Shown: one piece after another, positions 6,980 through 63,004 of the stretch
Layout of the letters: each line of letters begins with the position of its first letter
Numbering within the stretch: position 1 is the first letter of the stretch
Origin: a virus
Taxonomy: Duplodnaviria > Caudoviricetes
Strand: one strand, 5' to 3'
Length of the DNA stretch: 64,000 nucleotides
IMG/VR virus record: IMGVR_UViG_2936514734_000001
Location: 128,001-192,000 of that record
The notes under the pieces: generated by a model
The model's database searches: none
What the model was told of the DNA's origin: nothing
What the model saw: the letters and a program-made list of their open reading frames with translations, nothing else
Made by a program: the position numbers and the translations under genes

Positions 6980-7461
6980 GCTGCCTTCACTCCTGTGCTT
7001 CCAAATCCTCCATTACGTTCCAGCTTACTAGATTGAGCATCTTCATCTGCTTTTAAGTAAGGTAGGAAAATTCCTTGGGCAATACGGTCCCCATGATTAA
7101 CTCTGAAGACTTCTTCTCCCTCGTTTCGAAGTAAGATTAAGATATGATTACCATAAAAATCTGAATCAATGACTCCTGTAGCATTTTGTAAAGTTAAGTT
7201 ATTTCCATAAGCTAACCCGCTTCTTACAAATAAAGCGAGCCATTCATCTACTCCCATATAAGCAGTTAAGCCAGTATTAACAATAGCTTTAGTGTTTGGC
7301 GGGATAACGTAATCGCCAATTGCACAAATATCGTATCCCGCTGAATCATTTGTTTTACGAACAGGCTTCTTTACTGATCCATTAGCAAAATGCTCCTGAA
7401 AGTTTTCCAATACTTCAAAACCTCTACGCTTTTTTCTTTTAAAAAAATTAAACAATTTCAT
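6976..7461 (-). CDS. dut: Trimeric dUTPase
   Basis: SAGYD, RSG, GVIDSDFYG, GDRIAQGIF and RNGGFGSTG motifs. Confidence 0.95.
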   Translation of the reverse strand: MKLFNFFKRKKRRGFEVLENFQEHFANGSVKKPVRKTNDSAGYDICAIGDYVIPPNTKAIVNTGLTAYMGVDEWLALFVRSGLAYGNNLTLQNATGVIDSDFYGNHILILLRNEGEEVFRVNHGDRIAQGIFLPYLKADEDAQSSKLERNGGFGSTGVKAA

Positions 7462-7490
7462 GTTGATTCTTCCTCCTGTAGAAAAATTGG

Positions 7491-9455
7491 CTATGCAGTT
7501 TGTACCATGACCGTTTTGTAATCTCCTGGTATTTCATCTAAAAACGGACTAGGTTTTTGCCTAATCGGTTTTTGAGAACCATACTCATACTTAAAGGCGG
7601 AATGGGTTAGATATAAACGTTTTCCTGCCCTGGTCATAGCTACATACATCAATCGCCGCTCTTCTTCCATATCAGCAGGATTTCCTTTAGAACGATAATG
7701 TGGGAATACATCATCTTCTAAACCAATAACGAATGTTTCAGGCCATTCTAAACCTTTTGCAGAGTGTACCGAAGTAAGAGTTACAAAATCATCTTCATCT
7801 TCTTCTGCCTCTCCATCTAAACTTATCTCTGAAACGAATTGAGCTAAGGTATTAATATCCTTTTCTTGTGCATCCCAGTGTCGTGCATAATCTCTCAAGT
7901 GGGTTACGTTCTCAATCCTTGCTTCATCCTCTTCTTTATCCCTATCAAATTGCTTCATAAAGTCAGTTTTCTTCAACAAGATACGTAAGAACTTAGCTGC
8001 AGAAAACTCCTCTTCTAAGCCAGCTTGATAAAGCTCCTGCATAATTGAGACATAACCTTTTATCTTCGTCACAGTACCTTTATTAATCTTACTTTGAGCT
8101 GCTACTTCATCAATATTCTGCAAAGCAACAAACATCGGTATTTTACGTTCTTGAGCAAACAATCGAACCTTATTAACAGTTGCTTCACCAATTGCTCTCT
8201 TAGGTACGTTAATCGTCTTTTCAATCGCATAATCGTCTGCCAGGTTATGACTAGCACGAATATAAGAAACGATATCTTTGATTTCTTTTCTGTCATAGAA
8301 AGAGGTTGTTCCTACTATTTTGTAAGGAATATTTTCATCTCTCAATGCAAGTTCTAGATGTTTTGATTGGAAGTTCATACGATACAGAACCGCGAAGTCT
8401 TTCCAATCACACTTCGATGTTTTACGGATATTCACTATTAATCGAGCTACAAAATCAGCTTCTCTTGAAGCATCATTAAAGCGGAATACATGAATATCGT
8501 CACCGGTTGTTCCAACGGAGAAAGCTTCTCTTTCTAATCGCATTTTGTTATGAGAAACCAAAGAGTTAGAGGCGTTCACGATTTTTTGTGTAGAACGATA
8601 ATTTTCTTGAAGTAAGATTACTTTTGTATCAGGATGTAATCTTTGATAATTTAGGATGTTTTCGATCTTAGCAGAGCGGAATGAATAGATAGATTGATCC
8701 GCATCACCTACTAAAAAAATGTTTCCGTGCTTCTGTGATAGCATTTCAATTAATTCAAATTGAACTTTGTTTGTATCCTGAAACTCGTCTACTAAAATGT
8801 AGCGAAATAGATTTTGATACTTCCCTAACAATTCGGGATTTGATTTAAATAAATTAACTGTCTTTAATAACAGATCATCAAAATCAAAATAATTATGAAC
8901 AGCTTTTAAATCTTCATATAATTGATAAACATTAGCTGCATCTGCTTTGTCTCGTTTCCCCTGTGTTTGTGATTGTGCTTCACCAGGTGTAATAGCATCA
9001 TTTTTCCATGAAGAAATTTGACCAAGAAGACTAAATACCGCCTGCTTATCGACTTCAATGCCTAACTGAACAGCCGCTGTTTTTATCATAGCCTTCTGAT
9101 CTGAATCGTCCATTAACGTAAACATTTCTAAGCCTAAATGATGAAGGTTAGTAGATAAGATTCTGTTACATACACTATGAAATGTACCTATCCATGCTTT
9201 AAATGCTCGAGAATCAATATTGTTTACACGTTCTTTCATCTCTTTTGCACTTTTGTTTGTAAATGTGATAGCTAAAATACGCCAAGGATCTACTCCTTGC
9301 TCTAATAAGTACGCAATACGAGTAGTTAGCACTTTTGTTTTTCCAGAACCAGCTCCTGCTAAAACAAGATTACGTCCTTCTGTTTCTAGTACCGCTCGTT
9401 TTTGGCTATCATTTAGCCCTTGCAATAAAGGGTTTTCCAATGCTGTTGTTAGCAC
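7491..9455 (-). CDS. pcrA: PcrA/UvrD ATP-dependent DNA helicase
   Basis: AGAGSGKT, TFTNK, VDEFQD, VGDADQSIY, QENYRST, HSAKGLE and EERRLMYVAMTRA motifs. Confidence 0.95.
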   Translation of the reverse strand: MLTTALENPLLQGLNDSQKRAVLETEGRNLVLAGAGSGKTKVLTTRIAYLLEQGVDPWRILAITFTNKSAKEMKERVNNIDSRAFKAWIGTFHSVCNRILSTNLHHLGLEMFTLMDDSDQKAMIKTAAVQLGIEVDKQAVFSLLGQISSWKNDAITPGEAQSQTQGKRDKADAANVYQLYEDLKAVHNYFDFDDLLLKTVNLFKSNPELLGKYQNLFRYILVDEFQDTNKVQFELIEMLSQKHGNIFLVGDADQSIYSFRSAKIENILNYQRLHPDTKVILLQENYRSTQKIVNASNSLVSHNKMRLEREAFSVGTTGDDIHVFRFNDASREADFVARLIVNIRKTSKCDWKDFAVLYRMNFQSKHLELALRDENIPYKIVGTTSFYDRKEIKDIVSYIRASHNLADDYAIEKTINVPKRAIGEATVNKVRLFAQERKIPMFVALQNIDEVAAQSKINKGTVTKIKGYVSIMQELYQAGLEEEFSAAKFLRILLKKTDFMKQFDRDKEEDEARIENVTHLRDYARHWDAQEKDINTLAQFVSEISLDGEAEEDEDDFVTLTSVHSAKGLEWPETFVIGLEDDVFPHYRSKGNPADMEEERRLMYVAMTRAGKRLYLTHSAFKYEYGSQKPIRQKPSPFLDEIPGDYKTVMVQTA

Positions 9456-9750: not shown

Positions 9751-9779
9751 AACGTAAGCAGTTAAAACTGATTCGTCAA
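9751..9779 (-). promoter_or_regulatory. SigA-like promoter TTGACG-N17-TACGTT
   Basis: One of four promoters sharing the TACGTT -10 element. Confidence 0.65.
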
Positions 9780-12637: not shown

Positions 12638-12667
12638 AACGTAAGGATTTACAAAATAGAAAGTCAA
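12638..12667 (-). promoter_or_regulatory. SigA-like promoter TTGACT-N18-TACGTT
   Basis: Directly upstream of thyA; shared -10 element. Confidence 0.55.
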
Positions 12668-20285: not shown

Positions 20286-20441
20286 ATAAATAACTCCTCT
20301 CAGAACTTAAGCACTTAAAAATTAAAAATCAAGAAAAAAAGAACCTTCATTTGTAGTTTTTCTACAAAGGAAAGCTCTTTTAAAAGGTAAAGTAATTATG
20401 AAAAATTAAATATCAAATCGAGGGAGAGTAATATGATTTTT

Positions 20442-20515
20442 TGGCAGGGGCAGTAGGAGTTGAACCCACACTGACGGTTTTGGAGACCGTAGTTCTACCT
20501 TTAAACTATACCCCT
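20442..20515 (-). tRNA. tRNA-Trp(CCA)
   Basis: Canonical cloverleaf; ACGGT-CTCCAAA-ACCGT anticodon arm; encoded CCA. Confidence 0.9.
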
Positions 20516-20527
20516 AGAATATATTCA

Positions 20528-20723
20528 TGTGCTTACAGCGGGAGAGTCCTGACCCCTAGACGACATCGCTCCTTCCCCAGCCAGTAAAAGGTGAGAAATC
20601 TTTTACAGCAAGGTATGTAACACTGTACCCTAAAAAAGTTTCTCAGGCTTTTCTAAGTATTTTCAAGTGTATACGCAAAACGAAGCACGGATTCGAACCG
20701 TGGTTGCTCCCCTTGTAAGCACA
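20528..20723 (-). ncRNA. Circularly permuted tRNA-like RNA (YrlA/Y-RNA-like topology)
   Basis: Termini pair (UGUGCUUACA/UGUAAGCACA). T-arm CACGG-TTCGAAT-CCGTG lies 5' of D-arm GTCT-AGGGGTC-AGGAC; CTCCC/GGGAG stem continues into the terminal helix. Confidence 0.65.
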
Positions 20724-20881
20724 CGAAATATAAGGCGAGGTAATGGGGAATCGAACCCCAATAGTCACACCAGCGATAACCTACTTCTTTTAACTAGTAT
20801 TATACAAAGTAGAAAACAGGAATCGAACCCTATCGGTCAACCATGCTTACCTCATAAAAAGTGGGGGCGTTAGCCCCCGTA

Positions 20882-20995
20882 TAGACAAGGCAGGACTTGA
20901 ACCTGCAGTGGAGTTATTTATATATATCCTCTCATCCCATTTTTCAGGGCGTGTTTGCCAGGCGCGATCGCAACCTATATTCCACCACTTGTCTA
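20882..20995 (-). ncRNA. Aberrant class-II tRNA-like element (expanded D-loop, non-canonical anticodon arm)
   Basis: Acceptor AGACAAG/CTTGTCT; T-arm GCAGG-TTCAAGT-CCTGC; extra hairpin in the D-loop. Confidence 0.55.
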
Positions 20996-21136
20996 GTGTC
21001 CTTTGACCTGTACGCCTCCGAAGGGACACGTCTTTTAAGGGGAGACGCACAGGTTTTGCATTTCGCTAAGCTTAGATAGCTTAGACCGCCTGCTTGGCTA
21101 ACTTTTATAGTTCACATTAAAATGGTGAACCATTAA

Positions 21137-21209
21137 TGCCGACGATAGGACTTGAACCTACAACCTCCTGATTACAAGTCAGGCGCACTACCAATTGTGC
21201 TACACCGGC
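21137..21209 (-). tRNA. tRNA-Thr(UGU)
   Basis: Canonical cloverleaf; CCTGA-CTTGTAA-TCAGG; CCA not encoded. Confidence 0.9.
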
Positions 21210-21218
21210 ATAATAGCA

Positions 21219-21271
21219 ATCAACTAAGGGGAATTGAACCCTTTTCGACTACCGACAAGTCTCTTAGTTGA
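21219..21271 (-). ncRNA. Anticodon-less mini tRNA-like element
   Basis: TCAACTA/TAGTTGA acceptor, GACT/AGTC D-like hairpin, AGGG-TTCAATT-CCCC T-arm; no anticodon arm. Confidence 0.5.
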
Positions 21272-21278
21272 CCTTGAG

Positions 21279-21349
21279 TGATCTTAACAGGAGTTGAACC
21301 TGTGAGTGATAGTGTTTATCTATCGCGTTGACCGCTTCGCCATAAGACC
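21279..21349 (-). tRNA. Atypical tRNA (anticodon loop ATAAACA, nominal AAA); pseudo or mimic
   Basis: Full cloverleaf, but non-canonical anticodon loop. Confidence 0.55.
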
Positions 21350-21360
21350 ATATTACTGTG

Positions 21361-21552
21361 TTAGCTGCTTCTAACTTTAGAACGAATTGAATTATGTCCA
21401 TTTGGAAGACCAGTAGATGAAAACAACATACTTCCTGCATAATCTTTCTCCGCTACTTCACCGCATTCACATGTAGTTTCTGTTGTACCCATCTTTACGA
21501 TTTTCTCAAAAGATGTATCACATTTTTCACAATTAAATCTATAGATTGGCAT
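21361..21552 (-). CDS. FmdB-family zinc-ribbon protein
   Basis: MPIYRFNCEKCDTSFE...CECG. Confidence 0.85.
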   Translation of the reverse strand: MPIYRFNCEKCDTSFEKIVKMGTTETTCECGEVAEKDYAGSMLFSSTGLPNGHNSIRSKVRSS

Positions 21553-21554
21553 TG

Positions 21555-21773
21555 TTAATCTCCTAAGATTGGATTATGCGTTGAATACATAGGTGAACAA
21601 CCTTCATGAGATGGGAAAGTTAATTCTTGAACAGGTTCTTTACTTGTAAGAATTAGCACAGTATTATCTCTTTCAGCATCAAATCTTACATGAGAAATAT
21701 CTACTTCTTCAGGTAATTGCATAATCTTTTTTAATACAGATTTGCGTATAACAAGTTGTCCTTTAGCAGACAT
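21555..21773 (-). CDS. Hypothetical protein (true start probably MSAKGQ)
   Basis: RBS GAGGGG upstream of the ATG; the longer track ORF overlaps tRNAs. Confidence 0.6.
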   Translation of the reverse strand: MSAKGQLVIRKSVLKKIMQLPEEVDISHVRFDAERDNTVLILTSKEPVQELTFPSHEGCSPMYSTHNPILGD

Positions 21774-21801
21774 ATTGATCTTCCCCTCTATTAAATAAAG
21801 A

Positions 21802-21877
21802 TGGCGATCCCGACCGGATTTGAACCGGCGATCTCCTGCGTGACAGGCAGGCGTGTTAACCGCTACACTACGAGACC
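21802..21877 (-). tRNA. tRNA-Asp(GUC)
   Basis: CCTGC-CTGTCAC-GCAGG; CCA. Confidence 0.92.
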
Positions 21878-21880
21878 ATA

Positions 21881-21958
21881 TGGAGCGCAAGACAGGATTC
21901 GAACCTGTGAAATAATAGGGTTGCAACCTATCGCGTTAAGCCGCTTCGCCACATGCGC
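21881..21958 (-). tRNA. tRNA-Cys(GCA)
   Basis: ATAGG-TTGCAAC-CCTAT; U73; CCA. Confidence 0.88.
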
Positions 21959-21962
21959 GTAA

Positions 21963-22040
21963 TGGTCCGGGTGGAAAGACTTGAACTCTCGGCCTCCTGC
22001 TCCCAAAGCAGGCGCTCTAACCAAACTGAGCTACACCCGG
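21963..22040 (-). tRNA. tRNA-Pro(UGG)
   Basis: CCTGC-TTTGGGA-GCAGG; CCA. Confidence 0.9.
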
Positions 22041-22046
22041 ATTTTT

Positions 22047-22220
22047 TGGCGTGCACGGGCTGGAATCGAACCGCCCTTCCACTATGGTCTATCCTATTCT
22101 GACAATAGGGGTTTGTCATAGCTGATCTCTCGCCAACCTAACCGTATCCTTTCCTTCATGTTGTCAGATGCATGAAATACTCCAACGCTTCGTGAAAGGT
22201 TAGCTTCGCCTGAGCTGCAC
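22047..22220 (-). ncRNA. 174-nt CCA-terminated tRNA-like RNA with expanded internal domain
   Basis: GTGCA/GTGCAC-GCCA acceptor; T-arm GGGCGG-TTCGATT-CCAGCCC; two internal hairpins with complementary loops. Confidence 0.65.
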
Positions 22221-22231
22221 ATATTAAATAA

Positions 22232-22305
22232 TGGCTCTTGATTGACTTGAACAATCGACCTTTCCCTTATGAGGGGAACGCTCTAACCAACTGAGCTAAA
22301 GAGCC
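22232..22305 (-). tRNA. tRNA-Met/Ile2(CAU)
   Basis: TTCCC-CTCATAA-GGGAA. Confidence 0.85.
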
Positions 22306-22309
22306 GAAG

Positions 22310-22386
22310 TGGTGGACCTTACAGGATTCGAACCTGTGACCGGACGGTTATGAGCCGTCTGCTCTAACCAGCTGAGCTAAAGGTCC
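22310..22386 (-). tRNA. tRNA-Ile2(CAU), lysidine type
   Basis: GGACCTTTAGCTCAG...GACGG-CTCATAA-CCGTC; closely resembles Bacillus tRNA-Ile2 as recalled. Confidence 0.88.
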
Positions 22387-22389
22387 ATT

Positions 22390-22462
22390 TGGTTGCAGAG
22401 GCAGGAGTTGAACCTGCGTAGTCTTGGTTATGAGCCAAGATGGAATACCCATTCACACTGCT
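22390..22462 (-). tRNA. tRNA-Met(CAU), initiator-like (1:72 mismatch), short D-arm
   Basis: CTTGG-CTCATAA-CCAAG; ACCA end. Confidence 0.7.
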
Positions 22463-22596
22463 ATAATGAAAGACTCCTATGATATTCCCACACATCATAG
22501 GAGTTATTATGATACGGCTATATATCATAATTCTTCTTTTCATACTTCAAGAAAGGAGTGACTTCGTGGCGGGTTATCTTCATAACCCATAATAAA

Positions 22597-22669
22597 AGGT
22601 GCGCCTTACAGGAATTGAACCTGTCCTCGCCCGCGCGGTTGGGCAGTACTACCGCTATACTAAAGGCGC
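22597..22669 (-). tRNA. Atypical tRNA, undetermined anticodon (8-nt loop AACCGCGC)
   Basis: Good acceptor, D and T arms; aberrant anticodon loop; ends ACCT. Confidence 0.55.
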
Positions 22670-22735
22670 ATTGCGCTCAAAGGGATTAAGGAGACCCCTA
22701 AACCTGTAGGTTGTATTTTATGAGCGTCTTGGTAA

Positions 22736-22808
22736 TGGAAGATGAAGGAGTTGAACCTCCGACGCGTAGATCTTCAATCTACCGCTCTACCAACTGAGCT
22801 AATCCTCC
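22736..22808 (-). tRNA. tRNA-Phe(GAA)
   Basis: GTAGA-TTGAAGA-TCTAC. Confidence 0.88.
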
Positions 22809-22809
22809 A

Positions 22810-22884
22810 TGGAGCACCTCACGGGAATCGAACCCGTACTGTCTGCTTGGAAGGCAGAAGTCATAGCCATTAGACCAGAAGCGC
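22810..22884 (-). tRNA. tRNA-Gly(UCC)
   Basis: TCTGC-CTTCCAA-GCAGA; TCCA end. Confidence 0.9.
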
Positions 22885-23039
22885 ACAATCTACGGTTTTC
22901 CGATACCGTAGAAAGAATAAAATAGAGTTCTTATAAAGTGAAAGGAAGGATTTAAATGATAACAGGAAAAGCTATAAAACTAACCCGTACATTATTTAAA
23001 CGGTGACAGGAAGTACCTTTCGGTAAGCCCTGTCATGTA

Positions 23040-23127
23040 TGGAGGAGGGAGCGGGATTCGAACCCGCGGATGTTTTACCACCTCTGGTTTTCAAGACCAG
23101 TACAATAAGCCTCTCTGTCACCCCTCC
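23040..23127 (-). tRNA. tRNA-Ser(UGA)
   Basis: CTGGT-CTTGAAA-ACCAG; long variable arm. Confidence 0.88.
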
Positions 23128-23128
23128 G

Positions 23129-23219
23129 TGGCGGAAGGTAAGGGATTTGAACCCTTGCGCCGACTTAGCGACCTACACCCTTAGCAGGGGCGCCTCTTCA
23201 GCCTCTTGAGTAACCTTCC
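23129..23219 (-). tRNA. tRNA-Ser(GCU)
   Basis: CGCCC-CTGCTAA-GGGTG; long variable arm; GCCA end. Confidence 0.9.
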
Positions 23220-23221
23220 AT

Positions 23222-23305
23222 TGGCACCCATTGAAGGAATCGAACCTCTTGGGAATGGTTTTGGAGACCATCGACTTACCTCTCGTCTTTAACCCTCTAA
23301 TGGAT
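23222..23305 (-). tRNA. Second tRNA-Trp(CCA) with ~10-nt insertion between acceptor stem and D-arm
   Basis: ATGGT-CTCCAAA-ACCAT; acceptor ATCCATT/AATGGGT-GCCA. Confidence 0.65.
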
Positions 23306-23310
23306 ATTGA

Positions 23311-23384
23311 TAGCACTGACGGGATTCGAACCCGCGTATGACCGATAGAAAGTCGGCTGTGTTAGGCCACTTCACCACAGTGCT
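23311..23384 (-). tRNA. tRNA-Glu(UUC)
   Basis: GCCGA-CTTTCTA-TCGGT. Confidence 0.82.
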
Positions 23385-23418
23385 AGATTAAGATGTGACT
23401 TAGAGCCACATCGATTAA

Positions 23419-23811
23419 TTAACTTTTTAATAAGAAATTGAAGTTAGTAAACACTCTTCGTTCAGGGCTAGTATCCCATTGTGATACTTTTTCTTCTGGA
23501 AAATGCACAAAGTCTACAATAACATGAGCATTTACATCCGGAAGTAAGTAAAGGAGTTTCACTATTTTGATGTAATTATTGTCTTGGATAGTTTCAGCTT
23601 CAACTAGTTCAGCTTCAATAGTAGGAAAATCCGTTGCACCGCTTCCTTTATAATTCAACGAAGAAACATAGGTACGGGCATCTGTTAAGCTATTTCTAGA
23701 TGTGTCATTGATGAATCGAGTATTAGTTAACCCATCTACATAGGCAACTACTTGTTCTTCTAAACCATCATACTTAAATAAATAAGTAGCTTCTTTTTTT
23801 ACTACTGACAA
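23419..23811 (-). CDS. Hypothetical protein within the tRNA array
   Basis: 130-aa ORF, RBS GAGGGTG. Confidence 0.65.
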   Translation of the reverse strand: MSVVKKEATYLFKYDGLEEQVVAYVDGLTNTRFINDTSRNSLTDARTYVSSLNYKGSGATDFPTIEAELVEAETIQDNNYIKIVKLLYLLPDVNAHVIVDFVHFPEEKVSQWDTSPERRVFTNFNFLLKS

Positions 23812-23833
23812 TTTAACACCCTCTTCAAAGATT

Positions 23834-23908
23834 TGGCTGCGGGGGAAGGATTCGAACCCTCGTATCCATGAACCAAAATCATGTGCCTTACCGCTTGGCT
23901 ACCCCGTA
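23834..23908 (-). tRNA. tRNA-Gln(UUG)
   Basis: CATGA-TTTTGGT-TCATG; GCCA end. Confidence 0.88.
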
Positions 23909-23911
23909 ATA

Positions 23912-23987
23912 TGGCTCCACCTGCAGGTCTCGAACCTGCGACCACTTGATTAACAGTCAAGCGCTCTACCAACTGAGCTAAGGTGGA
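23912..23987 (-). tRNA. tRNA-Asn(GUU)
   Basis: CTTGA-CTGTTAA-TCAAG; GCCA end. Confidence 0.92.
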
Positions 23988-26067: not shown

Positions 26068-26913
26068 TTATGCTACACGGATTTTTTGACCAACAGTGAT
26101 TTTATTAATGTCTTGAATATCAGGATTCAAAGCTTTAATTTTATCAACTGTTGTATTGTACTTAACTGCAATTGCAGAAACTGTATCACCTGCTACTACC
26201 GTATAGTACACCGCTGTAGACTTCACTTTTAACACTTGACCGATAGTGATAATGTCTGAAGTTAAACCGTTTAATTGTTTAAGTTCATCTACAGTCATTT
26301 GATATTTATTAGCGATAGACCAAAGAGTATCACCTGCTACAACTGTATATGTGTCAGTTGCAAGAGATGGTTCAGTAACACCAGCAACTTTACCTGTTAA
26401 GGTTTTAACAATTGCTTGAGCTACTTTCTGAACACCACCAGGGCCCATTACTTTGTCCATATCAGATTGAGTATCAATGAAGCCAGTTTCGACAAGAATA
26501 GCCGGAGCATTTGTTGAGTTAAGGAAACCAATTCCTTGTCGCTCTTGAGGACCACGATCTTTATAACCCATTGCAGTAGCAAGGTCTTTTGATACTTTAG
26601 CTGCAAGTTCTACTTCGCTGTAATAAAGAACCTCACAACCAGTTCCACCACCAGCATTTAAGTGAATACTTACATCTAAACGTCCTTCTTTTGGAAAGCT
26701 ATTAGCTTTTCTTACAGCGTTAGTCCAAACTTCAGTTTGAGTTGTTCCAATGTCATCTGTTACAACTTCTACGTTTTGACCTACTGCCTTCATCTGCTTT
26801 TCAAGTTCAGCAACAATCAATCTAGCTACTTCATGTTCCTTGTAGCCACATCCGTATGCTCCTGGAACAATCGCATTATGGCCCGCTGTTAAAGTGATTA
26901 AATTATAACTCAA
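26068..26913 (-). CDS. Amidase_3 + 2 LysM; paralogous endolysin
   Basis: Same catalytic motifs; two YTVVAGDT LysM repeats. Confidence 0.92.
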
Positions 26914-26998: not shown

Positions 26999-29482
26999 TT
27001 ATGCTATTTTGTTAAAGTTACCTAAACGCATAGTTACTACATGTCCAACTTGTGCTTGAGAGAAGTTTACTACTTCTAGGATTGTTGCTTCATGTTGTTT
27101 GCCGTCCAACAATACAGCTTCAGTCATAGACGCTAGCCCTTGCGCTACAATCTGACCTTCCTTACCTAGAATTGAAACTACTTTACTAGTAATAGGGCCA
27201 CCGTTCATTTGTAATTCACTTACTACTTGAACCCGTTTGCCGACGGATTTTTGCCAAGAGACAGGAGGGAATCCTGTTGTGAATTGAATAACGGTTTCTG
27301 TTTCAGATAGATTGCCTGATCCATCTTGAATGTTACCTACTACTTGTGTTGTTTGCTTCTCTTCTGTTTGAGCATGAATACCTGTTTCTTTTAAAGTCTG
27401 AGTAATCACACCAGAAATTGCACCTTGTGCTTGATCTAAGACATTTTGACGATCCTGTGGTGTTAAAGCCGTTTGGTTACGAATTTCTTGTACAGCTCCA
27501 CCCGGATCTTTTGATTGAGATGTTACTAATTCTTGATAACCTTGAGCATAATTTGCTTGCGGATTTGGTTCTAGCAATTGTTTAGCTTGTTCTGGATTAT
27601 AATCTTTGTTTAATACTTGCTCCGCTGAAACAGTTTGTTCAGCTGCTGGTTGTGTTGCTTCTTGTGTATTTACAGATTGAACTTCTTCTGTAGTTTGAAC
27701 CAGTTGAGAAGCAGCTTTAGCTTCTTCTTGTTTTTGTGCAAGTTCGCGTTGTCTGAACGCAAATGCATCTTCAGTGATTGGTGCAAAGCTAGTTACATCT
27801 AACACTTCATCTTTATTTTCATACGGGAATGCATCTACTTCGATTAAGTAATCAAACTTAACAACTAATTTCTTACGTTGCGTTGATTCATCAGTTACTA
27901 AATCAACATCTGTTAAACGGGCAACCCATTTAGAGTTACGCATTTGTTGTTTGGATAAGATATTTTCTGTAGTAGCCATTTCAAACACGTCATACATTAA
28001 CGCAATACGGTTTGTGTTGTCTGATGTATTATGATAGAATCCCAAACTTAATGACTGTCCAACCATAGCTTTAGCAGCTTCTAAACTAAACATTGCCTCT
28101 GCTTTAGGGTGAAGTACTAACTCTAGTTTATCAGTTACAGGGAAGTCAGCTGGAACTTCACCTTGTGCTTGTAATTGAACTGCTGGTTTAGCAGGTTGTT
28201 CTTGAGTAACTGGCGGCGCCTGCACAGTTTCCCCGATCACTTCTGCATCTAATTTAAATTGAATAAATGTATTACCATTTGCTTCTTTAATTGTATAATC
28301 TAGAATTTTAGCAGAGTAGTTGTTTGGTTTTAATGGTGATTTTTCATCAATACCAATAACTACTGTTCCGTTAGCGTTCTTAGTAAAGAAACGAGCTGTA
28401 CCATTAGCACATGTAATTCCATAAGGTTGTTGTACAACTACGTCTTTTTGATTTTTAAAGATGTCTACAAAGTTAGGGTGAATTAAGAAGCTAGTAACTA
28501 AGAAAGGTTTTTCTTCAGTTGTTGCTTCTTCTTGAACAGGTTGGACTTCTGATTGAGTAGTAACCTCTTCATCCTTTTGTTCAGTAACTGTTGTTTCTTT
28601 AGCTGATTCCTCTTCTTTTTCCTTAGCATGTTCTGGAACCTCTCCTTTTTCAAGAAGGTTTCTCACGTTCTTAACAATCCAATGATCGTCATCTAGTAAT
28701 TGAAGATTTTTATAAGTCACATCTGTGTAACGTGCACGAGATTTCTTAGTGATTTCACTAAATGACACAACTTGTACAGAGATAAATCCATTATTCTTTA
28801 AGTGGTCTTGTACATGTTGTGGGAATTGTTCTAACTTAATTGTTTTTGCAATAGCAACTACTTCATCATCTAAGCAAAGAACTAATGTGAATGAACGTTT
28901 TTCACGGAACATTACACCGCCACGTTCAATGATAGTATCTAAATGTTTATCATTTGTTGGTGAAATAAGTCCAAAAGTTTCTACATACTCCGTTTCATCT
29001 ATAGGTTGTGTCTCTGCAGATACTTCAGCTTTTACTTCTTGCTTAACTTCAGCAACAGGTGCTTCTGCAACTACAGGAGCTGGTTGAGTTTCAACTTTAA
29101 CTTCCTCTACTTCTAGGCTCATTTCTTCTTGAAGTTCTTGCGCTGGTTCTGTTTGCTTTTCTACTACAACAGACTCAGTTGCAACTTCCTCTTGCTTAGC
29201 TTCTTCATTTGTTGTTTCCTGAACAGCTGGTGTTTCAACTACCTCAGAAGTAGTTTCTTCAATACTTACAGGTTCTTGGATTTCTTTCGTAGCAGATGGG
29301 ACAATATCGTCGATTGCGCGTTCAATATTAAAATCCGGTGCTTCCACATTTGCTACTTCTACGCCTTCAACAGCGAATACTTCTAAGTATTTATGAATAG
29401 CAGAGATAATCCCTTGCTTAACCTCAGTATCTTCTTCAAAATTTACACGTTTTAATAGTTTATCAAATTGTTCTACTTTCAT
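26999..29482 (-). CDS. Large acidic multi-domain hypothetical protein (start probably MKVEQF)
   Basis: RBS AAGGAGAG before the ATG near 29480; E/Q/T-rich linkers between globular segments. Confidence 0.7.
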   Translation of the reverse strand: MKVEQFDKLLKRVNFEEDTEVKQGIISAIHKYLEVFAVEGVEVANVEAPDFNIERAIDDIVPSATKEIQEPVSIEETTSEVVETPAVQETTNEEAKQEEVATESVVVEKQTEPAQELQEEMSLEVEEVKVETQPAPVVAEAPVAEVKQEVKAEVSAETQPIDETEYVETFGLISPTNDKHLDTIIERGGVMFREKRSFTLVLCLDDEVVAIAKTIKLEQFPQHVQDHLKNNGFISVQVVSFSEITKKSRARYTDVTYKNLQLLDDDHWIVKNVRNLLEKGEVPEHAKEKEEESAKETTVTEQKDEEVTTQSEVQPVQEEATTEEKPFLVTSFLIHPNFVDIFKNQKDVVVQQPYGITCANGTARFFTKNANGTVVIGIDEKSPLKPNNYSAKILDYTIKEANGNTFIQFKLDAEVIGETVQAPPVTQEQPAKPAVQLQAQGEVPADFPVTDKLELVLHPKAEAMFSLEAAKAMVGQSLSLGFYHNTSDNTNRIALMYDVFEMATTENILSKQQMRNSKWVARLTDVDLVTDESTQRKKLVVKFDYLIEVDAFPYENKDEVLDVTSFAPITEDAFAFRQRELAQKQEEAKAASQLVQTTEEVQSVNTQEATQPAAEQTVSAEQVLNKDYNPEQAKQLLEPNPQANYAQGYQELVTSQSKDPGGAVQEIRNQTALTPQDRQNVLDQAQGAISGVITQTLKETGIHAQTEEKQTTQVVGNIQDGSGNLSETETVIQFTTGFPPVSWQKSVGKRVQVVSELQMNGGPITSKVVSILGKEGQIVAQGLASMTEAVLLDGKQHEATILEVVNFSQAQVGHVVTMRLGNFNKIA

Positions 29483-29567
29483 TATTATTCTCTCCTTTGC
29501 AAATGCTTGTATTGTATTTTCAATTTCAACTAATGTACTCAAACGACTTACTCCTCTCAGTCTTTTG

Positions 29568-29701
29568 AGCAACCTTCTAGGCAAGGCTGGGTTAGGGCGT
29601 CACACCTAACCCATTCTCCTTTGCCTTTAAAACAGAAAAGGATGATATCTGTATGTCCAGAACAGAAAAGGAGGGTAGTCAGCCCTCCCTAGAAGGTTGC
29701 T
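29568..29701 (-). ncRNA. Scaffold sRNA, copy B
   Basis: Terminal helix GCAACCTTCTAG/CTAGAAGGTTGC; GGAGGG-CTGACTA-CCCTCC hairpin; CCTTGCCTAG 3' motif. Confidence 0.6.
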
Positions 29702-29715
29702 AATGCTTTTGTTTT

Positions 29716-29847
29716 AACAGTCCTCTAGGCAAGGAAAGATGTTTCATCACGACATCTTTGTAATCCTCACCCAATCTAAAATCTGGAGGTAAAGTAAAAT
29801 AATTTACGAAAAGCTGGAGGATAGTCACCCCTCCCTAGAAGACTGTT
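29716..29847 (-). ncRNA. Scaffold sRNA, copy A
   Basis: Terminal helix AACAGTCTTCTAG/CTAGAGGACTGTT; GGAGGG-GTGACTA-TCCTCC hairpin; same 3' motif. Confidence 0.6.
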
Positions 29848-29863
29848 TTAAATGACTGAAAGT

Positions 29864-29892
29864 AACGTAAGCAGTTTGTATAAAAAAATCAA
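29864..29892 (-). promoter_or_regulatory. SigA-like promoter TTGATT-N17-TACGTT driving the tandem sRNAs
   Basis: Shared TGCTTACGTT motif about 15 nt upstream of copy A. Confidence 0.65.
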
Positions 29893-30011
29893 TGCTTGGG
29901 CTATTTAATTTACTTAATTTCGGCAAAAAATTTAGGCAAAAGAAAAAGCCCTTCGGCAAAAGGACTCTTTCGTTTAACTAAATTCAAAAAGGATAGGGGC
30001 GTTAGCCCCTA

Positions 30012-30824
30012 TTATTTGATTGGCAACAATGTTGCTCTTGAAGAATGCGTAAGTGCATTAAAGTTAGTGTAGTGATGATACAATCTTCTCTCCGCTAGGA
30101 TTTGATTCAAATAACCCATCGTAATCAAAGCGGCCATCTCATTTGATTGCATTCTTTGTGGTTGAGATACTACATTTTGTCCACAACTTTGAGAAGGTAA
30201 AAGACTCTCTTCATCTTCTAAAATATCAGGATATACACTAGCTACCGGTGGCAGAATTGTATCGTTATGATGAATTCCACATACACAATGACCTGCATAG
30301 CCTGAACGTCTTTTGTCTTCATCGGTTCCTTCTTGCAAGATACCATCTACTCCACAATCAATATAAATAAGATTTTGGTCTTGTTCGAAATATTTATGCA
30401 TAATCTTTCTTGAAGCGTGATTATCCACCGCTCCAATAAGAACCCTAAATAACAAACGTGATTCTTCTAAAACAAATGTTTCTTGATTAGATTGAAAGCA
30501 TTTTGCTAATTCTTCTTCAGACTCTACATATTCTTCTCGATAGAAGATAGGAAACTGATAGGACTTGCCGTAACGTTCCGCTAATATTTTAGCCTTGTTC
30601 TTATTTAAGTCCCTTGGTAGAAAAGGTTGACGCTGTAGATTCTTTTCTTCAACATGATCTAAATCGACAATCGTGTAAGAAAATGTAGTATGAGAAGAAT
30701 TGCTAGATAAAGAGGATAATAACTTAGCTAAACGCTGAGTTATGTACCCACCATTCCCTCCCGCACCAACCTGTACAATATCAAAGTGAATTGTTTTTTC
30801 AGGGAAAAAGTCTAGTGCTTTCAT
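30012..30824 (-). CDS. ThiF/E1-like Ubl-activating enzyme (PRTRC-type), module 1
   Basis: VGAGGNGG, DLDHVEEKNLQRQ, KAKILAERY, GAVDN, SCG candidate catalytic Cys. Confidence 0.88.
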   Translation of the reverse strand: MKALDFFPEKTIHFDIVQVGAGGNGGYITQRLAKLLSSLSSNSSHTTFSYTIVDLDHVEEKNLQRQPFLPRDLNKNKAKILAERYGKSYQFPIFYREEYVESEEELAKCFQSNQETFVLEESRLLFRVLIGAVDNHASRKIMHKYFEQDQNLIYIDCGVDGILQEGTDEDKRRSGYAGHCVCGIHHNDTILPPVASVYPDILEDEESLLPSQSCGQNVVSQPQRMQSNEMAALITMGYLNQILAERRLYHHYTNFNALTHSSRATLLPIK

Positions 30825-30828
30825 CTAA

Positions 30829-31395
30829 TCACCCTTTCTTTGCGCCTGAGACAACAGGAACAACAAGCTTTTTCTCTTCATCTACTTCCATACGACAACG
30901 TTCCTTTGAGAGTTCAGGGTAATCTAATTCCAGCCATTGTCTTAATGCATCTAATGTCATATCGTCCTCTGGTGGATTATGTTGTTGAGCAGCATAAGCA
31001 ACAGTCCATGTTTTATCTACCTTCATATCTTCTTTCTTTTTAACCTGATTCTTAATAGCTTTCGATACAGCGGAATTTTTCTTAGGCTTAGCTTTACTCT
31101 CCTTTTTAACAGGAACTACAGGTGGTTCTTCTTTTTCCTCTTCCTTTTTAACTTCTACCACAGGTGGTTCTTCTTTTTTCTCCTGTGCTTGAGGTTGTGC
31201 AAATGGATTGTCCGTTGTATTTGCGTTTAAATTAGCAAATGGATCAGCGGCAGGCATATTAAATAAATCCGCCCCTGCAGGTTGTTGAAACACGTTATCA
31301 AACCCTTTTGCTTCATTATTTTCTAAGAATGTATTAGCTGTTAAATCTACACTTCCAAATAAATCGTTTGTTTTATTGTTATTATTTTCGCTCAT
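30829..31395 (-). CDS. Disordered N-terminus + C-terminal prokaryotic ubiquitin-like domain ending KKG
   Basis: MTLDALRQWLELDYPELSKE...VVSGAKKG resembles Prok_Ub/PRTRC-C (YPEL...KG). Confidence 0.7.
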   Translation of the reverse strand: MSENNNNKTNDLFGSVDLTANTFLENNEAKGFDNVFQQPAGADLFNMPAADPFANLNANTTDNPFAQPQAQEKKEEPPVVEVKKEEEKEEPPVVPVKKESKAKPKKNSAVSKAIKNQVKKKEDMKVDKTWTVAYAAQQHNPPEDDMTLDALRQWLELDYPELSKERCRMEVDEEKKLVVPVVSGAKKG

Positions 31396-31424
31396 ATGTT
31401 TAACCTCTTTCTATTATTGTTATA

Positions 31425-32129
31425 TTAAGCTTCTGGATAATATTTTCTAACAAATTGTTTTACGATATCCTGTACTGACCAATTAGTTTCTACGAGTTTG
31501 TCATAATCAAAAACAGATTCATTTTGTAATTTCATAAATACATGTCTTAATGAAGTATTCCAGTTGTTCGTTGTCGCTTCAGAATAATAGTGATCTGTAA
31601 ACGAAGCGGACATCCAGTTATGAATAAACGATGACATCTGCGCTAAGTCTTGTACTTCAGACATAAAGAAGAAACACATGTCGCCATCAGATTGAACATG
31701 CGAAAATGGGAACCTATAAAGTTTTGTTGTGTCCCGTAAAACTTTATCCTTAAAACAGAAACATCTTTTTCTCTCTAGTACATACTTACCTTCTGAAGGC
31801 TTAAATACAAAAATGAATAATAAGTTCGGAAAAAGAACATTATCAAATTTTGTTTCATGATATTTGATATTGTGATTTTTCTGTTTCATCTCCATAAATA
31901 AAACAACCTTATCGTCTGGTAGTGTTAAATACTTCACAGTACCTGGTGGTAAAGCAGGTGTTTCAAATACAGGCATTTCATATTTCTTTCTAGTGGTTTT
32001 TCTTTCATAACAATTACGCATTAAAAATTCAAACAATGTATTGTGATCAACGTCAAAAGAACGTTTTAACCCGTCGTGTTCGTACTCTATATGTGGTAAT
32101 TTTTGATCTCCTAATGTAATTTGTATCAT
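31425..32129 (-). CDS. Prokaryotic E2 family D (PRTRC protein B-like), module 1
   Basis: TPALP, FPNLLFIF, LYRFPFSHV..DGDMC. Confidence 0.72.
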   Translation of the reverse strand: MIQITLGDQKLPHIEYEHDGLKRSFDVDHNTLFEFLMRNCYERKTTRKKYEMPVFETPALPPGTVKYLTLPDDKVVLFMEMKQKNHNIKYHETKFDNVLFPNLLFIFVFKPSEGKYVLERKRCFCFKDKVLRDTTKLYRFPFSHVQSDGDMCFFFMSEVQDLAQMSSFIHNWMSASFTDHYYSEATTNNWNTSLRHVFMKLQNESVFDYDKLVETNWSVQDIVKQFVRKYYPEA

Positions 32130-32692
32130 GCAATGTTTTCTCTCCCTTCAGGTTCAAGTAATAAGTAAATATATTCGTTTATTTCTCTAAGTTCTAACAA
32201 GAATTCAATAGTTGTGTGAACATCTATGCCACCATTGTCTTGCATACCAATCATAAAAGTTGCAGGCTGCCGTGCAAATTCACGAAATATAGGCTCTTCG
32301 CTAGTAGCCATAGTTGAATCAGGTAAATATACAAACTCAACTAAGTTACCTCCACCTTTTGAGTGTAGAAGCTGAATGTTTCTAGTAAACTCAAGGAATG
32401 CAGGATGATTAGCATATGGAAGTAGTTCTGGTATACGAAATGCACCTAAGATGTAATAATTCCACCCCTCTGCATGTTCATCATGGATTACGCTAGGGAC
32501 ATCTATCCATTCAAACTGAAAATCAAACATAAGATCCAGAGAGTTATAAATATCGTGAAGATACAAGTCCATATCATCGTCCAATGAATTTCTTAAGAAA
32601 TCTACAAAACGTTCATCCTCTATTCCATGTTTTAATTCAACCGTCTGAATGAATAAATTTTTTTTAATCTCTGCTGCAGAATATTTAAACAT
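32126..32692 (-). CDS. Hypothetical protein
   Basis: 188-aa ORF coupled to the E2 gene. Confidence 0.65.
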   Translation of the reverse strand: MFKYSAAEIKKNLFIQTVELKHGIEDERFVDFLRNSLDDDMDLYLHDIYNSLDLMFDFQFEWIDVPSVIHDEHAEGWNYYILGAFRIPELLPYANHPAFLEFTRNIQLLHSKGGGNLVEFVYLPDSTMATSEEPIFREFARQPATFMIGMQDNGGIDVHTTIEFLLELREINEYIYLLLEPEGRENIA

Positions 32693-32693
32693 A

Positions 32694-33341
32694 TTAAGCT
32701 ACACCTACTTTCTTTCGCTTCTTTATTTCTCCTACAAGATCCTCATAAAATTCACGATAAAACCTTGCGAAATCCATATATGCATTCATAAAGCTAGGGC
32801 CGTAATCATCTACCGTGTGACACTCTATGTCGAAATATATAATGAAGGTGTACTTCATATGGTTCATGTACCTTGTGTAGGACTTACTATCTCCTCCAAA
32901 AAACTGCGTCATAAAGAATGCTTTGTAGAATTCAAGGAAATTCATGAATGAACCATTCATTCCTTCAAACAATTGATTCATACGTAAGGTCCAATCAATT
33001 TGTTCTTGTTCGCTAAATAGATGGAGATTATCAAACAAAAGACCAAAATGAAAAATGCCACCAAATTCGATGGAGAACTGGTCTTCCACGTTCGCCCTTA
33101 TATTTTCTAAACAACCTGCAAATCCATCTTCGGGCCAATCTAATATCACTGATCCACATAGTCTTGATACGGTTTCAGGAACAAATACAGCAAAAACCAA
33201 ATCATCATACATATCGAAAGTTCCTTTACTAGGTGGCTCTTCTGGATTATCAGACAGAGTATTAACATATTCTTGGCATCTTACATAACTTTCATAGAGT
33301 AAAATATTTTTAAAGTATACAAACCCATAGTCCTTAATCAT
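32694..33341 (-). CDS. Hypothetical protein
   Basis: 215-aa ORF in operon. Confidence 0.65.
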   Translation of the reverse strand: MIKDYGFVYFKNILLYESYVRCQEYVNTLSDNPEEPPSKGTFDMYDDLVFAVFVPETVSRLCGSVILDWPEDGFAGCLENIRANVEDQFSIEFGGIFHFGLLFDNLHLFSEQEQIDWTLRMNQLFEGMNGSFMNFLEFYKAFFMTQFFGGDSKSYTRYMNHMKYTFIIYFDIECHTVDDYGPSFMNAYMDFARFYREFYEDLVGEIKKRKKVGVA

Positions 33342-37007: not shown

Positions 37008-37036
37008 AACGTAAGCATTTATATATATGAATTCAA
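37008..37036 (-). promoter_or_regulatory. SigA-like promoter TTGAAT-N17-TACGTT
   Basis: Shared TGCTTACGTT -10 region. Confidence 0.65.
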
Positions 37037-62915: not shown

Positions 62916-63004
62916 GGGGAATGTGAACGGGATTCGAACCCGTGACCCAAGTACCTAGCATACGCATTATAGGTCCATCGCTCTACCTACTGAGCTATCA
63001 CATC
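62916..63004 (-). ncRNA. Isolated tRNA-like RNA with expanded anticodon arm
   Basis: Acceptor GATGTGA/TCACATT; canonical D-arm GCTC/GAGC; T-arm ACGGG-TTCGAAT-CCCGT; ACCTA/TAGGT stem with 12-nt loop. Confidence 0.6.

Follow-up and report, generated by a model that had tools for sequence, protein, structure and literature searches.

Two similar units stand in tandem on the minus strand of a 64,000-nt stretch of viral DNA (bases 128001-192000 of the 239-kb virus record IMGVR_UViG_2936514734_000001; hereafter the window), and they raise the question whether they specify an RNA and, if so, how such an RNA would act. Based on comparison with other genomes we found that the existence of a conserved structured RNA family, previously uncatalogued and carried by phages and prophages of Bacillus type, is close to certain. 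As to its function we tentatively favour, with somewhat less than even confidence and from modelled folds, the reading that the units are a precursor borne in an mRNA leader, which may be processed and may refold to a small RNA exposing a CU-rich stretch.

Two units with a common frame

Unit A occupies positions 29714-29847 and unit B positions 29568-29700. The original prediction had placed two tandem minus-strand units here, and this agrees with their coordinates, with the strand of the upstream promoter, with the wobble pairs and with variants in relatives. Every wobble position is a G-U pair on the minus strand, and natural variants of relatives at 29591 and 29673, both in helices of the frame, change G-C to G-U on that strand. 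The orientation also fits the promoter upstream on the same strand, and promoter orientation is likewise in agreement in other members.

Common to A and B are a closing helix, a 5' side of the form CUAGG-GAGGG-loop-YCCUC and a 3' side with CCUUGCCUAG. The closing helices were said to differ between the copies and to end in CTAG, and they are indeed of different sequence, with 14 bp in A and 13 bp in B, CUAGG/CCUAG included. The middles of A and B are unrelated to each other, each with a CCUCC- or UCCUUU-type motif resembling an anti-Shine-Dalgarno (anti-SD) sequence. The 23-nt 5' motif CTAGGGAGGGNTGACTANCCTCC was found exactly twice in the window, where shuffled sequences gave an expectation of 0, and also twice in the whole 239-kb genome. 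Both units folded far better than their shuffled versions (z of -3.7 and -5.6). The parts of the units are as follows.

29714..29847, minus strand: unit A, with clamp P1 formed by 29847-29834 and 29729-29716
Unit A, inner parts, minus strand: segment a 29832-29829; 3' arm of hairpin P2 (segment b) 29821-29817; variable middle 29816-29773
Unit A, 3' parts, minus strand: purine-rich segment c 29772-29765; hairpin P4 29759-29735; segment d (CCUU) 29734-29731
29701..29713, minus strand: A-rich 13-nt spacer between the units, present also in the relatives L028 and L029
29568..29700, minus strand: unit B, with clamp P1 formed by 29700-29688 and 29581-29569
Unit B, inner parts, minus strand: segment a 29686-29683; segment b 29675-29671; middle 29670-29627 with duplicated UCCUUUUCUGUU
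Unit B, 3' parts, minus strand: segment c 29626-29618; hairpin P4 29612-29589; segment d 29586-29583

Covariation and two exclusive folds

The combination of a conserved frame and a variable middle was borne out as a true RNA family by covariation of the rod, that is the clamp with its inner extension. The figures come from an alignment of 16 units, the two in the window and 14 further ones, as modules of about 105-155 nt; an earlier version of the alignment had 8 units. P1 spans 10-20 bp and ends in CUAG(G)/(C)CUAG. Within the rod 90.4% of the cells were paired and 14 of the 25 pairs had changed on both sides, a score that none of 500 shuffles reached, and slid controls were 40-51% paired.

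Segment a, the 4 nt after CUAG-R-G (AGGG in the window units), has two possible partners, namely d (CCUU, before GCCUAG) and b. Pairing of a with d, across a conserved G-G mismatch, lengthens the clamp to a rod of about 17-25 bp, and pairing of a with b gives the local hairpin P2 of 5-6 bp. The three segments read AGGG/CCCU/CCUU (a/b/d) in phage units, AGAU/AUCU/AUCU in chromosomal units, AGAG/CUCU/CUUU in the contig L060 and AGAG/CUCU/CUCU in L069, and the fifth a:d pair varies between G-U, C-G, G-C, A-U and U-A. The a:d pairing was complete (4/4) in 13 of 14 tabulated units and in L069, with 3/4 in L062 and L070, and P2 was 5/5 paired in nearly all units. Since a, b and d co-vary across lineages, the core has two exclusive folds. 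Forced-fold energies placed these at most 2.6 kcal/mol apart in 9 of the 16 units, with the rod favoured in the rest.

Folded without the clamp, the cores of 10 of 12 distinct units were predicted to have P2 at one end, P3/P4 at the other and an open middle between them. The purine-rich segment c, which starts GGYR, can pair with d and GCC around hairpin P4. In nearly all units the middle that is predicted to be open contains a CU-rich motif of the AYCCUYY type, which resembles the 3' tail of 16S rRNA. The terminator scan flagged P2 with a U-rich tail; as the U-run is absent in other members, P2 was not read as a terminator. UGAY in the hairpin loops was present in the first three units and was not upheld by later members. 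A possible likeness of CCTAGAA to the Bacillus dif arm was set aside.

Distribution of the family

About 530 genomes were sampled with sequence patterns, including two looser ones, and with three covariance models (R1-R3). The family was sparse among them, at 1-2 copies per genome. A covariance-model search for more copies had been proposed from the sequence, and patterns and models together yielded the 14 further units, with middles that differ among the phage members. Aligned members come from the window, from its close relatives L028, L029 and L030, from five unrelated phage or prophage contigs (L005, L060, L062=L068, L069 and L070=L071=L072) and from the chromosomal copies L040-L044. L005 represents a third type, found by pattern scan in an unrelated 158-kb provirus, where the unit lies between two amidoligase genes and directly behind a perfect TTGACA-17-TAAGAT promoter. 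The covariance models and looser patterns gave units in prophage-like regions (L060/L061 and L062=L068). L069 has its unit in a 70-kb viral contig, in a YopX neighbourhood, and the unit of L070=L071=L072 precedes a 949-aa protein with a weak, sub-threshold match to the CHC2 zinc finger (primase-type).

Within one Bacillaceae genus, 5 of 10 species had the shorter chromosomal type (L040-L044). Each has a single copy, the locations are not syntenic, and in four of the species a conserved promoter block precedes the unit. The middles of these copies are conserved rather than variable, whereas those of the phage units differ from one another, so that conservation of the middles across homologues, named from the outset as a point against exchangeable guides, applies to one part of the family. 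A model built from the chromosomal copies alone detected the phage units weakly (21 bits, E ~0.006), which supports homology, but not strongly.

In Rfam 15, units A and B had no match at the gathering threshold and only chance-level matches at E up to 10, and the chromosomal copies had none. BLAST searches with the units, again at E up to 10, returned nothing but chance fragments from GenBank phages and from the plasmids of PLSDB. Among candidates from the pattern scans of genome and metagenome contigs, L006-L010 were rejected as chance matches in which the clamp is absent, and L037, L045 and L067 as chance or terminator matches.

Some features of the surroundings were recorded as well. About 100-150 nt upstream of the units in L040-L044 (e.g. 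L040:1370-1420) a palindrome-like AACCTTGTATAAAT..TATAAAAGGTAT block overlaps a TTGTAT-17-TAyrAT promoter; it accompanies the chromosomal units despite differing neighbour genes and may be an operator. In L044 the unit is followed, after some 130 nt, by a SAM riboswitch (1741-1848, 94 bits), which precedes a gene for a periplasmic-binding protein. Clustered around the unit of L005 (L005:2188-4213 and 7380-8606) are three genes for amidoligases (PF12224) and one for a gamma-glutamyl cyclotransferase-like protein. The small ORFs behind L061 and L062 showed no relation to each other.

Proposed processing and refolding

In the account that we favour, each unit would be an autonomous clamp-closed RNA module transcribed within the 5' leader of the following gene. 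The primary transcript would form the rod, which would act as the processing signal, and the clamp would be removed by a double-strand-specific nuclease, with RNase III as the obvious candidate, or by trimming of the ends. Removal of the clamp would let a switch from d to b and let d pair with c. The core would then refold into the 5' hairpin P2, a single-stranded middle with the CU-rich anti-SD-like stretch and the 3' hairpin P3/P4, an arrangement like that of base-pairing small RNAs, and its ends would be protected. The exposed stretch could find its partner in the SD region of the following gene or in those of further mRNAs. Additionally, the cut would leave the downstream mRNA beginning in the conserved polypurine AGARGR of the clamp 3' strand, possibly stabilising it. 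We infer the processing step and the pairing function from the modelled folds, and processing with refolding is the sole reading to account for the conservation of both partners of a.

Several observations weigh against this account. The co-variation of a, b and d could stem from gene conversion between two similar hairpins and not from selection for a switch. In the phage genome the best complement of the middles was 12 nt long, which is chance level, and in the lysogen genomes G083 and G152, which carry other members, the complement search returned only the unit itself. Of the earlier claim that the middles are antisense to ribosome-binding sites (RBS), the CU-rich, anti-SD-like and predicted single-stranded stretch stands, but an extended mRNA complement was absent from the phage and from these two lysogens. 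The chromosomal type can form 17 of 18 pairs with a conserved RBS of a lipoprotein gene, but the number of such matches equals that of the reversed-pattern control and is within chance expectation. Of the public runs listed as containing the units, none is an RNA run. There is no terminator between a phage unit and the next RBS, the phage units always lying in a 5' leader, and the chromosomal copies have no consistent ORF or terminator behind them.

Position in gene leaders

In the window the minus strand carries, in this order, a promoter-like site (29892-29864), about 16 nt, unit A, the 13-nt spacer, unit B, about 10 nt, GAGAGGAG and a TTG start.

29864..29892, minus strand: leader promoter, with TTGATT (29892-29887), a 17-nt spacer with TG, and TACGTT (29869-29864)
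29540..29557, minus strand: RBS GAGAGGAG (29557-29550) and probable TTG start (29542-29540) of an 861-codon frame
29942..29971, minus strand: intrinsic terminator of the upstream E2/Ubl/ThiF operon, from the terminator scan and conserved in relatives

The terminator separates the upstream operon from the leader transcript. All seven phage contexts have the same order of promoter, unit or units, 10-50 nt and the SD-ATG or RBS of a gene, and the genes that follow are unrelated (the acidic 861-aa protein, an amidoligase, a primase-like protein and small HTH-like proteins). The orientation of the unit is always that of the promoter and the downstream gene, and in L005 and L069 the predicted transcription start falls at the foot of P1. 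This order before unrelated genes fits a role of the leader in cis or a leader-derived small RNA alike.

It is possible, if on balance rather unlikely, that the units are purely cis-acting leader modules, from which no small RNA is released and which form a structured cap at the 5' end against 5' exonuclease or tune the translation of the downstream gene. The regular order in the seven contexts, the start at the clamp foot, the lack of a terminator of their own and the presence of 0, 1 or 2 copies at one site all agree with this, and 5' structures and SD-like sequences are known to stabilise Bacillus mRNAs (PMC7509114, PMC3997798). However, a simple 5' hairpin would suffice for such a role, which leaves the two-fold core, the always-free CU-rich stretch and the terminal core hairpins unexplained. 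The complementarity of the unit to the downstream SD, judged by eye, is a generic 5 nt only. Moreover, a single uniform role in cis does not fit the chromosomal copies, as these are inconsistently followed by an ORF or a terminator.

The leader position and the two exclusive conserved folds could also suggest a riboswitch-like leader, sensing a ligand or a protein and controlling the large downstream gene, which had been named as the alternative from the beginning. This we consider very improbable. The gene is kept without units in relatives and the downstream genes are unrelated between contexts; the conserved bases sit in helices, with the junction strand as the variable part rather than a conserved pocket; the RBS has no adjoining expression platform; and Rfam gave no match.

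Variation among relatives

Relatives were fetched through homologues of ThiF, which is encoded upstream of the leader. In six of them (L002, L032 and L033-L036) the same promoter is followed directly by the same RBS, with zero units, and the SD-start arrangement is that of the window. One unit is present at this site in L030, and two in L028, L029 and the window. Comparison of filled with empty sites gave no target-site duplication.

A DNA-level element, either a transposon of the MITE type, bounded by terminal inverted repeats, or a recombination site that acts as a folded single strand, could account for presence that varies at one site, for the non-syntenic chromosomal copies and for the inverted-repeat character of the clamp with CTAG, a palindrome, at its end. 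We hold it to be quite unlikely, because filled and empty sites differ without a duplication and each genome has 1-2 copies only. In addition, all mismatches are G-U on one strand (A-C on the other), the internal helices covary as well, and the orientation always follows the promoter and the downstream gene.

The first unit of L028 (L028a) has a clamp as in unit A, but the 3' half of its interior resembles unit B, which indicates that interiors were exchanged by recombination between copies. The interiors of L028a and unit A differ although the ThiF proteins are 96% identical. Contigs of three isolates carry both units at about 97% identity, with the differences mostly in the middles and several of them 1-nt indels. 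This concentration in the middles, together with the 1-nt indels, argues that the units are non-coding. A protein-coding small ORF was likewise rejected, as the frame that is open in A and B is closed after 6 codons in L005, and close relatives have 1-nt indels.

Such differences bear on the proposal that the units are a programmable scaffold-plus-guide antisense system, in which each middle would silence one host or phage mRNA at its RBS by long complementarity, possibly with a protein partner. The anatomy on which it was built proved right: the frame is conserved, the middles are unrelated and contain anti-SD-like motifs, near-identical genomes have different middles and natural variation falls mostly there. 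However, the extended complement was absent from the phage and the two lysogen genomes, L028a has an interior with the look of a recombinant, from a copy of the unit B type, and not of a new guide, and the chromosomal middles are conserved. The suggested protein partner found no candidate either. The two largest carrier phages, which are unrelated, have 13 ORFs in common, all of them metabolic or anti-defence (TerC, NAMPT, PRPP synthetase, Apyc1, ThyA, RecA, TK, NADAR) and none RNA-related. We regard the proposal as improbable. It is doubtful, too, that the units are cassette-like precursor RNAs in which clamp and frame would direct processing and refolding and the exchangeable middle would guide the silencing of host or rival-phage mRNAs at the RBS.

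The accessory genes common to the two otherwise unrelated phages G000 and G004 encode an Apyc1-like anti-Pycsar protein, NAMPT and PRPP-synthetase-like proteins, NADAR, TerC, ThyA, TK and RecA. From their sequences, this suggests an exchange of counter-defence and nucleotide modules.

Promoter class and neighbouring genes

The promoter at 29864-29892 scored under the threshold of the generic sigma-70 scan. Yet the motif TTGAyT, about 14 nt, aaNTGCTTACGTT recurs on this strand of the phage genome, with at least seven occurrences, and the leader promoter is kept in relatives both with and without units; owing to this recurrence and conservation, the site that had been predicted was accepted as a promoter of a phage-typical class. 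In the window, sites of the motif lie at 2192-2204, 9751-9763, 12638-12650, 20304-20316, 29864-29876 and 37008-37020, all on the minus strand. Judged from sequence, they may represent a class of promoters specific to the phage, which one of its own proteins, a sigma factor or a polymerase, might recognise.

The 861-aa protein encoded behind the leader (26999-29542, minus strand) is acidic and rich in Glu, Gln, Thr and Val. It is conserved in relatives at about 815-876 aa and matched no Pfam or PHROG family. An amidase-LysM endolysin gene (26068-26913) lies downstream of it. Besides a Prok-E2_D protein, the upstream operon (30012-33341, minus strand) encodes an E1 of the ThiF type (PRTRC-like) and a protein of 188 aa whose C-terminus is weakly ThiS-like. 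This E2/Ubl-like/ThiF operon is kept in 200-250-kb elements of many Bacillaceae, including the B. cereus group, Priestia, Gottfriedia, Cytobacillus and B. inaquosorum. The window also has 17 tRNA genes (20445-23987 and 62919-63004, minus strand), 16 of them in a single array.

Comparison with known systems

Few structured RNAs of Gram-positive phages have been characterised. The present family is well defined by covariation, is absent from Rfam and occurs both in Bacillaceae phages that are otherwise unrelated and on some chromosomes. What is unusual in its design is that the clamp sequesters both ends and that an inner segment has two mutually exclusive, co-varying partners. If processing and refolding occur as proposed, phages would have a way to make small RNAs from mRNA leaders without terminators, and the units would offer a compact frame of natural origin in which RNA cargo could be presented in Bacillus. 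As leader stabilisers only, they would still be portable expression elements of practical interest, and as scaffold-plus-guide RNAs they would amount to a modular antisense system found in nature, with its members arrayed in the leaders of genes.

The PeSLs of T4-type phages are short promoter-plus-hairpin DNA modules that are thought to drive recombination. Similarly, the present units are small portable regulatory cassettes before unrelated phage genes, and their presence varies between relatives; a covarying multi-helix RNA, in contrast, is absent from PeSLs.

RNase III processing signals occur in phage early transcripts as the R sites of T7 and the SP82 sites in Bacillus, which are simple hairpins of about 50-60 nt, and a polypurine 5' stabiliser of SP82 mRNA was reportedly described by Hue et al. 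in 1995 (cited in PMC7509114). Like our units, these signals are double-stranded elements that are conserved and recur in leaders or intergenic regions of phages, and a purine-rich SD-like sequence would come to lie at the new 5' end. RNase III sites are coaxial duplexes of about two helical turns, and in every one of our units P1 and a:d together supply some 15-25 bp, interrupted by a single G-G mismatch. The branched variable interior and the alternative inner helix are found only in the present units, whose cleavage is predicted.

The 5'-terminal stabilisers of Bacillus include STAB-SD of cry3A and the leaders of aprE and ermC (PMC3997798, PMC7509114), and SD-like sequences stabilise the 5' ends of Bacillus mRNAs, including phage SP82 mRNA (PMC7509114). 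Like our units, STAB-SD stabilisers lie right behind the promoter, with structure at or near the 5' end and SD-like sequences. However, the SD-like segments of our units are base-paired in both folds, and the module is far more elaborate and is also found without a downstream gene.

A further comparison is with the LhrC sibling small RNAs of Listeria (Rfam RF00616; PMC5880928), which lack a closing clamp and are each transcribed from a promoter and ended by a terminator of their own, whereas the present units have no terminator and match LhrC neither in sequence nor by model. The likeness is in other respects. LhrC exists as several related copies of about 100 nt, some of them adjacent, as here. 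Its single-stranded CU-rich stretches pair with AG-rich SD regions, including that of the lipoprotein gene oppA (oligopeptide-binding) (PMC5880928), and in the present family nearly all units have CU-rich stretches in a middle predicted to be open, for which a similar pairing is proposed.
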